A DNA stretch of 64,000 nt, from contig JAKACP010000001.1 in assembly GCA_021821305.1 (NCBI GenBank), forward strand, positions 532,349-596,348, in the 5' to 3' direction. The notes below the pieces were generated by a model. That model was given only the letters and a program-made list of their open reading frames with translations, made no database searches and was not told where the DNA came from. A program made the position numbers and the translations under genes. This DNA is from a bacterium. Lineage in GTDB: Bacteria; Patescibacteriota; Minisyncoccia; Moranbacterales; UBA1568. Shown here in pieces: positions 38,790 to 39,978 of this stretch (position 1 is its first letter; each line of letters starts with the position of its first letter).

Positions 38790-39978
38790 GTCGTGGCACA
38801 CCCTGAGACGCGAGGGATTGCTCCGCGGCGGCCGGCGCGTGCTCACGGCCTTCTTCGCCATGTTCCGCCGCGTCCGCTCCGGAGACATCCTCTTCATCAC
38901 GGGCGGGGTGGGCGACAGCGCCCGCTACCGGTGCCACCATGTCGCCGAAGAGCTCGGCTTCCGCGGTTTCCGCACGGCCATCACCGTGCAGGACAACCCC
39001 TTTCTCCCGTCGTACGCCGACAAATTCGCCGTTTTCATATTTCACCGCGTGCTCTACACGCCCGCGGTAGCGAAGCTCATCGAGAGCATCAAGGCAGAGG
39101 GGAAGGAGATCATCTTCGAGACAGACGACCTCGTCTACGATCCGGAGTACCTCGTCCACATGGACTATTTCAAGGTCATGAACCCGCTCGAACGCAAGCT
39201 CTACGAGCATGGCGTCGGCGGCGAGATCCTCGCCGATCCGTACGTGAAGGTCGCGACGACGACCACGTCGTTCCTCGCCGACAAGCTTCGTGAAAAAGGC
39301 AAACAGGTCTTCGTCGTCCCGAACAAGCTCATGGAAGAGGATGTGCGGATCGCAGATGAGATCCGCAAGGAACAAGGAACAAGAAACAAGAAACAAAAGG
39401 AGGTTACGATGGCTTATTTCAGTGGTTCCGCCTCGCACAACAAGGACTTCGCGACCATAGCCGAGCCGCTCCTCGGCATCCTCGCGAAATATCCCGACAC
39501 GCGCCTCGCGATCTACGGGCCGCTCGACCTCGATCCGCGGTTCGACGCGTTCGGTAACCGCGTGAAACGGATCCCATATGTCTCCCGCGAGAAGCACTGG
39601 GCCAACGTCGCGGCTGCGGATATCAATCTCGCTCCGCTCGAGATCGGCAATCCGTTCTGCGAATCCAAATCGGAGCTCAAATTCTTCGAGGCGGGAATCG
39701 TCGGCGTCCCGACCGTCGCCGCGGCGACCAGGGTATTCCAGGAGGCGATCGCCGACGGCAAGGACGGATTCGTCGCCGCGACTCCGGAGGAATGGACAGC
39801 CAAGATCGAAAAACTTATACTGGATTCCGGACTCCGCGAAGAGATGGCCGGACGGGCCCGCGACAAGGCGCTCGCGAAATACGCGACCACGACCGCCAAG
39901 AACGATCCGTACTACCAGTACCTCATCGGCAAGATCGCGAAGCCGGCCATTCCGAGCGAAGCCGAGGAGCCTCGTTGA
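38761..39978 (+). CDS. glycosyltransferase (GT-B, GT1/GT4-like C-terminal domain) with an internal heptanucleotide tandem repeat
   Basis: C-terminal motif ELKFFEAGIVGVPTV. An internal in-frame RBS and ATG lie at 39395-39411. Confidence 0.6.
   Translation: MKLLLIKIGKSWHTLRREGLLRGGRRVLTAFFAMFRRVRSGDILFITGGVGDSARYRCHHVAEELGFRGFRTAITVQDNPFLPSYADKFAVFIFHRVLYTPAVAKLIESIKAEGKEIIFETDDLVYDPEYLVHMDYFKVMNPLERKLYEHGVGGEILADPYVKVATTTTSFLADKLREKGKQVFVVPNKLMEEDVRIADEIRKEQGTRNKKQKEVTMAYFSGSASHNKDFATIAEPLLGILAKYPDTRLAIYGPLDLDPRFDAFGNRVKRIPYVSREKHWANVAAADINLAPLEIGNPFCESKSELKFFEAGIVGVPTVAAATRVFQEAIADGKDGFVAATPEEWTAKIEKLILDSGLREEMAGRARDKALAKYATTTAKNDPYYQYLIGKIAKPAIPSEAEEPR
39366..39400 (+). repeat. heptanucleotide tandem repeat (CAAGRAA) x ~5 inside the GT coding sequence
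   Basis: CAAGGAA CAAGGAA CAAGAAA CAAGAAA CAAAAGG, followed by AGG...ATG. Confidence 0.7.

Follow-up and report, generated by a model that had tools for sequence, protein, structure and literature searches.

Heptanucleotide repeats are described as the most abundant class of long simple sequence repeats (SSRs) in most prokaryote genomes, and slippage linked to the polymerase footprint has been put forward as a hypothesis for this abundance (Mrazek 2007, as relayed in PMC4692102 and PMC4679880). The short tandemly repeated repetitive (STRR) sequences of cyanobacteria, the GGGAATC-type repeats of Xanthomonas and Nostoc and the TAACTGA repeats of Beggiatoaceae are tandem heptamers with typically 2-6 copies per set and many loci per genome (PMC4679880, PMC4692102). 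Repeats of this class are mostly intergenic, often lie just 5' of start codons and sometimes occur as inverted pairs (PMC4679880, PMC4692102). A heptanucleotide repeat also controls the phase variation of pglE (PMC7157529), and an intragenic (AATTTTG)14 repeat with a frameshift is known from H. influenzae hmw1A (PMC2651432). Here we describe an array of CAAGRAA heptamers inside a glycosyltransferase gene (38761..39978, + strand) of a member of the Moranbacteria, within a 64-kb stretch of DNA that we call the window. An original prediction from the same DNA had proposed that this array is a slipped-strand switch. The anatomy and conserved unit number of the tract, the fact that such arrays recur at one permissive loop and the scattering of similar arrays in two relatives make it probable instead that this is a tolerated STRR-like heptamer array in a gene that is kept ON, and not a selected switch.

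Four good units can be read directly from the sequence at 39366-39393 (+ strand), as CAAGGAA twice followed by CAAGAAA twice, and this count is kept in orthologous loci L010-L014. The next heptamer, CAAAAGG (39394-39400, + strand), departs from CAAGRAA at 3 of 7 positions and forms a degenerate fifth unit at the array edge, where orthologs have CAAGGGG or CAAGGCA. Tandem Repeats Finder (TRF) delimits the array at 39366-39396 with a period of 7, 4.4 copies, 95% matches and a score of 48. The original prediction counted five CAAGRAA heptamers (35 bp), A-rich in a gene of about 63% GC. The tandem repeat does exist, with four units and a degenerate fifth, and it is 63% A (0.37 GC) in a gene whose GC is 0.60. 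A non-triplet unit inside an open reading frame (ORF) is expected of a contingency gene, and the array has one (period 7, within 38761-39978). It also passes the threshold of at least three units used to screen for heptamers in PMC2651432, with four units that are an imperfect 2+2 set and longest perfect tracts of 18 and 19 nt. Within the 64-kb window there is no other period-7 array with at least three copies, and the CAAGRAA unit was not found elsewhere and is not dispersed there. The tract is not an assembly artefact, because the identical protein is encoded by no fewer than three independent contigs in public data, of up to 826 kb; with orthologs that carry the array as well, both chance and artefact are ruled out. 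An Rfam scan of the window returned two tRNAs only, with no match at the repeat locus, and the minus-strand ORFs that overlap the repeat site are all spurious and high in GC.

The host gene encodes a glycosyltransferase of 405 residues. Its start is assigned to the ATG at 38761 because the N-terminus MKLLLIKIGK is conserved among homologs, of which there are more than 1,400, and all of the named ones belong to Moranbacteria or Patescibacteria. Pfam Glycos_transf_1 (PF00534) matches residues 207-368 (38.9 bits against a cutoff of 26.4), and PF13692 and PF13524 also match. The N-terminal domain has no Pfam match, and no NCBIfam subfamily is assigned at cutoff (best 21 bits versus 400). An AlphaFold (AF2) model built on 40 orthologs has two Rossmann domains, with a predicted local distance difference test score (pLDDT) of 88 and a predicted template modelling score (pTM) of 0.86. 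The top Foldseek matches of this model in the PDB are PimA, MshA, BshA, WaaG and PglA (E 1e-13 to 1e-10). As modelled, the enzyme has a GT-B fold and is GT4-like, since its best PDB matches are GT4 retaining glycosyltransferases.

The repeat codes for K203-K213 (KEQGTRNKKQK), which in the model make up the end of a helix (192-205) and most of a coil (206-214). This peptide links the two Rossmann domains and ends just short of the opening strand (215-220) of the C-terminal one, and the model thus agrees with the original placement of the repeat in the inter-domain linker of a GT-B enzyme. The pLDDT is about 70 at residues 201-210 versus more than 90 in most neighbouring blocks. On the alignment and the structure model, the codons for K203-E214 (KEQGTRNKKQKE; 39367..39402, + strand) constitute a hypervariable inter-domain loop. 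A heptad or coiled-coil role for a peptide with a period of seven residues is ruled out, because the encoded peptides are only about 11 residues long and unrelated in sequence.

Scans of genomes and metagenomes with the protein returned 6 and 1 loci, respectively, none of them from the close clade, and the DNA of close relatives was obtained by exact-protein look-ups. The comparisons of repeat number given here are made between assemblies. Orthologs at 77-84% protein identity (L010-L014) have the array in the same register, with the same count and the same 37-aa linker as the window, and five lineages share this count. The units themselves vary: the array is (CAAGGAA)4 in L013 and (CAAGAAA)4 in L014, CAAGAAA and CAAGGGA alternate in L012, and the units of L010 and L011 are decayed. 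Between L013 and L014 the flanks are nearly identical and all four units differ at one shared position, which we read as a signature of concerted evolution of the units. The 2+2 array of the window looks like an intermediate between these two arrays.

Even closer relatives have different arrays altogether. The closest of them, L009, matches the window at 97-100% DNA identity except in a patch of about 130 nt, and its array site is taken by an unrelated array, (CTAAAAG)4. The 90% cluster to which both belong has a third member, L019, whose (CCACGGA)4 array agrees in register and length. L012 and L020, whose proteins are at least 90% identical, differ in that one has an array and the other has none. 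The divergent patches span 50-130 nt and have 47-60% identity versus 95-100% in their flanks. Copy number is about 4.1-4.7 for every unit (CAAGRAA, CTAAAAG, CCACGGA and GTCATCA), and independent assemblies agree at the array both for the protein of the window (at least three contigs) and for P0003 (two samples). No repeat-number polymorphism between strains was found among the assemblies of the window, L010/L011, L012, L013 and L014. The variation in repeat number that a switch should display is thus missing from five lineages and from independent assemblies, and as far as assemblies show, the repeat number is uniform across strains, an outcome that the original prediction itself had named as speaking against a switch. 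Unit sequence that varies at a fixed unit number is the opposite of what classical contingency loci do.

Arrays at this loop recur widely among orthologs. All possible perfect heptamer repeats were translated and the resulting peptides matched to orthologs: of 121 proteins, 19 have an exact translation that runs for 8 aa or more, and in 18 of these 19 it lies in the linker. Translated repeats of period 4 or 5 are absent from the same 121 proteins, and those of period 8 are absent from the linkers, with two matches elsewhere. If at most one mismatch over 10 aa is allowed, 32 of 274 proteins match versus 2 of 822 shuffled controls, and every match is in the linker. Approximately 19% of orthologs have a heptamer array of about 4.5 units at exactly this loop, and about 80% are without an array. 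The linker arrays fall into more than 20 unit families that are unrelated in sequence, and ten array alleles are confirmed in DNA. Linkers range from 32 to 81 aa and cannot be aligned over 120 orthologs that are otherwise 60-93% identical. Palindromic elements are also inserted in frame at this same loop (L002, P0009, P0011 and P0013). To judge from these sequences, the inter-domain loop accepts almost anything that preserves the frame.

Similar arrays are present outside the glycosyltransferase gene. A TRF survey of 141 kb (the window and 16 loci) for arrays with at least three copies found 31 tandem arrays, 22 of them with period 7. Half of these heptamer arrays (11 of 22) are outside the linker, mostly in intergenic DNA beside the starts or ends of genes, and outside genes the copy number is also about four. 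In L005, the linker unit GTCATCA is present at six places within 7.2 kb (16 matches versus 0.6 expected), and its arrays form, among others, two inverted pairs, with a 23S_rRNA_IVP (PF05635) gene enclosed by one of them. The CATGTAG family has 8 matches in L008 versus 0.4 expected, and units of this type are translated in the linkers of P0068, P0041, P0117 and P0177. Occurrence of the same unit at many, mostly intergenic loci is the mark of an STRR; it is seen in L005 and L008, and not for CAAGRAA within the 64-kb window. Because arrays of about four units, from the same unit families, also fill intergenic DNA in L005 and L008, a period of 7 and a count of about four are not peculiar to switching of this gene. 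The array of the window appears to belong to a class of short heptamer arrays (about 4-5 units) that extends throughout the Moranbacteria, a lineage of the Candidate Phyla Radiation (CPR).

Some of the intergenic arrays flank small 23S_rRNA_IVP genes (L008, 5253-5279; L013, 2730-2774 and 3136-3166; L014, 3098-3128). The pair around the 23S_rRNA_IVP ORF of L005 (5323-5350 on the + strand and 5703-5730 on the - strand) is inverted, like the stem of an intervening-sequence cassette. In L013, L014 and L018 the same cassette separates the glycosyltransferase gene from the epimerase gene, and the window does not have it.

Simulated loss and gain of units bears out the original claim that a change of a single heptamer shifts the frame. 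Loss of one unit or gain of two leads to a stop 49 nt past the ATG at 39409, gain of one or loss of two leads to a stop 146 nt past it, and gain or loss of three preserves the frame. It is the C-terminal domain that is lost in the simulation, and not the N-terminal domain that is frameshifted, as had been proposed.

One allele illustrates what such a change would look like. Searches for split alleles with the N-domain alone and the C-domain alone returned mostly fragments at contig ends, and L015 (P0135, a distant ortholog on ENA contig k119_423634) is genuinely split at the array. Its six units are in unbroken 7-nt register (GATACAA three times, then GATACAG, AAACAAA and GATAGGT). The frame of the N-domain ends at a TAG (2637-2639), and it is in a different frame, from 2639 onward, that the conserved GYFSGTKSHDKDF segment is encoded. 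Either 4 or 7 units would restore the frame. A 1-nt deletion is judged to be a less likely cause of this frameshift because all six units hold the register. L015 is the only out-of-frame allele among about 31 that bear an array, and about 30 are in frame.

Because at least five split alleles break outside arrays (P0129/P0188, P0138/P0186, P0139/P0202, P0121/P0238 and P0154/P0173), a background of frameshifts and assembly errors must exist. In the one of these that was inspected, L017 (a 403-kb contig), the upstream GT4 gene is likewise split and no array is present at the break, so indel errors are the probable cause. L018 was rejected as a split allele, since it is cut by the contig end. The allele in L016 (P0125) is cut off within the linker at a palindrome (CCAAGAGCTAAGCTCTTGG; 1540-1585) that is followed by unrelated DNA, and it is probably either chimeric through assembly or rearranged at the hypervariable site.

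A Shine-Dalgarno-like purine run (AAAAGGAGG; 39395..39403, + strand) is located at the 3' edge of the array. It is followed by TTACG and an in-frame ATG (39409..39411, + strand), in the order AAGGAGG-N5-ATG that was described originally. If this ATG were a start, it would yield a stand-alone C-domain (M217-R405), either constitutively or after a frameshift, which might reconstitute a split GT-B enzyme with the N-terminal fragment. The spacing is ideal, M217 lies in the model at the start of the C-terminal Rossmann domain (in its first strand, 215-220), the four repeat-bearing orthologs retain the ATG, preceded at 5-8 nt by a G-rich run of purines, and after loss of one unit the N-terminal fragment would end 49 nt beyond the ATG. 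However, the window contains 223 copies of GGAGG and 23 of GGAGG-N4-10-ATG, the latter versus 15.7 +/- 4.0 in composition-preserving shuffles, with several of these sites deep within other long ORFs. None of the five publicly called starts nearby (37578, 38761, 40004, 41112 and 41386) has a Shine-Dalgarno-like motif. The purine run itself reads GGGGGAA, GGGGAAG or GGCAAGG in orthologs. Only the CAAGRAA clade has M at residue 217; other orthologs, array-bearing ones among them, have L, I, V or A. The next in-frame ATG of L015, the OFF allele, is past the conserved GYFSGTxSHxKDF segment. An internal start here would be expected to have a Shine-Dalgarno motif and start codon conserved across orthologs, and a motif that genuine starts use, and neither was found. 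Of the proposed internal ribosome-binding site and start, what stands is that the motif is in frame with the C-domain. Its match to AAGGAGG-N5-ATG occurs at chance level and is judged to be a coincidental by-product of the purine-rich array edge, and a functional internal start is extremely improbable.

The uniform unit number, the rarity of out-of-frame alleles and the presence of arrays with the same count in non-coding DNA argue against a selected ON/OFF switch, and the tract is best described as a latent frameshift hotspot, not as a proven switch. We infer that the array is selectively near-neutral and that it originated by polymerase slippage or by insertion. Heptamer arrays would arise or spread in weakly constrained DNA, to which this loop belongs as well as the spacers between genes. 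Among states of the coding copy, those that preserve the frame would alone persist, and drift, homogenisation or swapping would thus change the sequence of the units but not their number. Normally the full-length enzyme would be made, with occasional null alleles from the array. Several points weigh against this interpretation. Non-triplet arrays in coding DNA bear a mutational cost, and single-unit steps must go through out-of-frame states. The persistence of perfect arrays (four identical units in L013 and L014), together with the apparent concerted evolution, would imply that units are still being turned over, and the six units of L015 are in register but leave the gene out of frame. The 64-kb window has no second heptamer array, and dispersal is seen in L005 and L008 only. 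Glycosyltransferases in envelope-glycan clusters are classic targets for phase variation. Neutral drift alone fails to explain patches of 47-60% identity between flanks of 95-100%, and the favored interpretation accounts neither for this rapid patch divergence nor for the equal length of different arrays. A true contingency locus, in which slippage of the heptamers moves the gene between ON and OFF states at a rate that is elevated and selected, and thereby varies a surface glycan (for example, for phage escape or host contact), would accord with the non-triplet unit and with truncation after the N-domain in the simulation. It would also accord with arrays that recur at this site in about 19% of orthologs, units that evolve in concert (L013 versus L014 and L009 versus L019), the out-of-frame register of L015, the grouping of the gene with a second GT4 gene and a sugar epimerase gene, and the precedents of pglE and hmw1A. 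Such a locus is unlikely here, however, because the unit number is invariant over five lineages and independent assemblies in which the unit sequence varies, OFF alleles amount to 1 of about 31, and at least five further split alleles lie outside arrays. The tract in the window has four units in an imperfect 2+2 arrangement, some 80% of orthologs have no array, and the same arrays exist at equal copy number in non-coding DNA. What holds of the switch proposal is that the tract is slippage-prone in principle and that arrays turn over on an evolutionary timescale.

The patches might instead reflect targeted writing or swapping of array cassettes, with the loop as a preferred landing or recombination site for heptamer-array elements. 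These elements would be the arms of cassettes that resemble 23S rRNA intervening sequences and contain a 23S_rRNA_IVP gene, under diversifying selection or by an element-encoded mechanism. Alleles that are at least 90% identical in protein do have three unrelated arrays of equal length, and the divergent patches of 50-130 nt have flanks that are 95-100% identical. Moreover, the linker unit of L005 is also the unit of the inverted arrays that flank its 23S_rRNA_IVP gene, and palindromic elements are inserted at the same loop in other orthologs. We consider cassette swapping very unlikely, since no mobility gene or mechanism was identified, a second CAAGRAA array was not found in the 64-kb window, and homologous recombination among co-existing populations, combined with relaxed constraint, could yield the same mosaics. 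It is also quite unlikely that the loop is a conserved hypervariable site of Moranbacteria, into which array families from the arms of 23S_rRNA_IVP cassettes are repeatedly written or swapped within an essential-looking glycosyltransferase gene. If so, the resulting alleles would have different unit sequences at an equal unit number, and CPR bacteria would have a novel type of contingency or hypervariable locus, or a mechanism that generates heptamer arrays with a preference for certain sites. A tolerated array in a permissive loop continues to be the interpretation that we favor.

The neighboring genes place this enzyme in a glycan biosynthesis cluster. A GT4 glycosyltransferase gene (37578..38789, + strand; identified by Pfam) lies directly upstream and overlaps the gene by 29 nt, and a gene for a NAD-dependent sugar-nucleotide epimerase/dehydratase (40004..40966, + strand; Pfam and NCBIfam) lies downstream. 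This gene order is kept in relatives. The overlap (38761-38789) is kept in L009, L012, L013, L014, L019 and L020, with the start at 1501 and the upstream stop at 1529 in these loci, and its conservation suggests possible translational coupling of the two glycosyltransferase genes. The 25-nt spacer between the glycosyltransferase and epimerase genes (39979-40003, AATTCATAATTCTGAATTAATTTAC) is AT-rich and resembles a decayed array of AATTCAN heptamers. Arrays of this family are present upstream of the epimerase gene in L013 and L014 and are translated in the linkers of P0057 and P0101. Hairpins are located 3' of the epimerase gene at 40986-41010 and 41027-41057. The first of them (GTCATTCCCGTGCAGGCGGGAATCC) belongs to the family of palindromic elements that is inserted in frame in the P0009 linker ('SFPRRRESS'), and the second hairpin is terminator-like, with a 15-nt inverted repeat followed by a T-run.

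The C-terminal tail of the glycosyltransferase (39946-39978, AIPSEAEEPR) is variable, with VPSEVEEEPRRNS in P0001 and VIPSEVEESRQNS in P0003, and looks like a translated palindromic element that the ORF runs into. The C-terminus of another ortholog, P0065, ends as a translated heptamer array. A 12-nt in-frame repeat (ATCGAGGACAAG, three copies with about 79% matches) is found at 37478-37513, at the 3' end of a ClpB-like AAA+ gene, and it is kept in L001 and L009. The G+C content of the window is about 0.60 over 1-40 kb and 0.40-0.54 over 40-64 kb, directly past the gene cluster. This fall near 40 kb is not a chimera of assembly, because the independent contig L001 crosses the junction into a gene for a 923-aa lipase/PGAP1-like protein (41386-44157).

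A genuine switch here would, as far as the literature was searched, make this the first envelope-glycan gene of CPR/Patescibacteria for which SSR-type phase variation has been proposed, and it would bear on surface variation by these episymbionts. On the likelier interpretation, short heptanucleotide arrays are a genome feature of the whole Moranbacteria lineage, and a GT-B loop that tolerates nearly any in-frame insert should be useful for annotation and engineering. On that interpretation the locus also shows that a non-triplet repeat in a glycosyltransferase gene is insufficient to call phase variation without evidence of length polymorphism.

The heptanucleotide repeat of Neisseria meningitidis pglE and the tetranucleotide repeats of H. 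influenzae lic/lgtC-type genes are, like this array, intragenic non-triplet repeats in glycan glycosyltransferases, in which a change of one unit truncates the protein (PMC7157529, PMC2651432). At those loci, however, the repeat number varies between and within strains and OFF alleles are common, whereas the gene in the window has a constant number of units of varying sequence, four imperfect units in mid-gene and one OFF allele in about 31. Known phase-variable SSR tracts in glycosyltransferases are usually longer and often near the 5' end. Rickettsia palindromic elements are in-frame repeat insertions in permissive protein loops. They are comparable in that conserved proteins tolerate in-frame DNA of selfish or slippage origin in their surface loops, and palindromic elements also occur in this very loop, although the insert in the window is a tandem heptamer array and not a palindrome. 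The closest described analogues are the cyanobacterial STRR sequences and the TAACTGA arrays of Beggiatoaceae. The array considered here differs from STRR sequences in that it lies in frame inside a conserved enzyme gene, its unit is not dispersed within the 64 kb of the window, and many unrelated units are present across the Moranbacteria lineage versus one to three per genome in STRR. It shares with them, and with long SSR heptamers generally, the form of tandem heptamers in few copies, and the arrays of L005 and L008 are dispersed and intergenic in the same manner.

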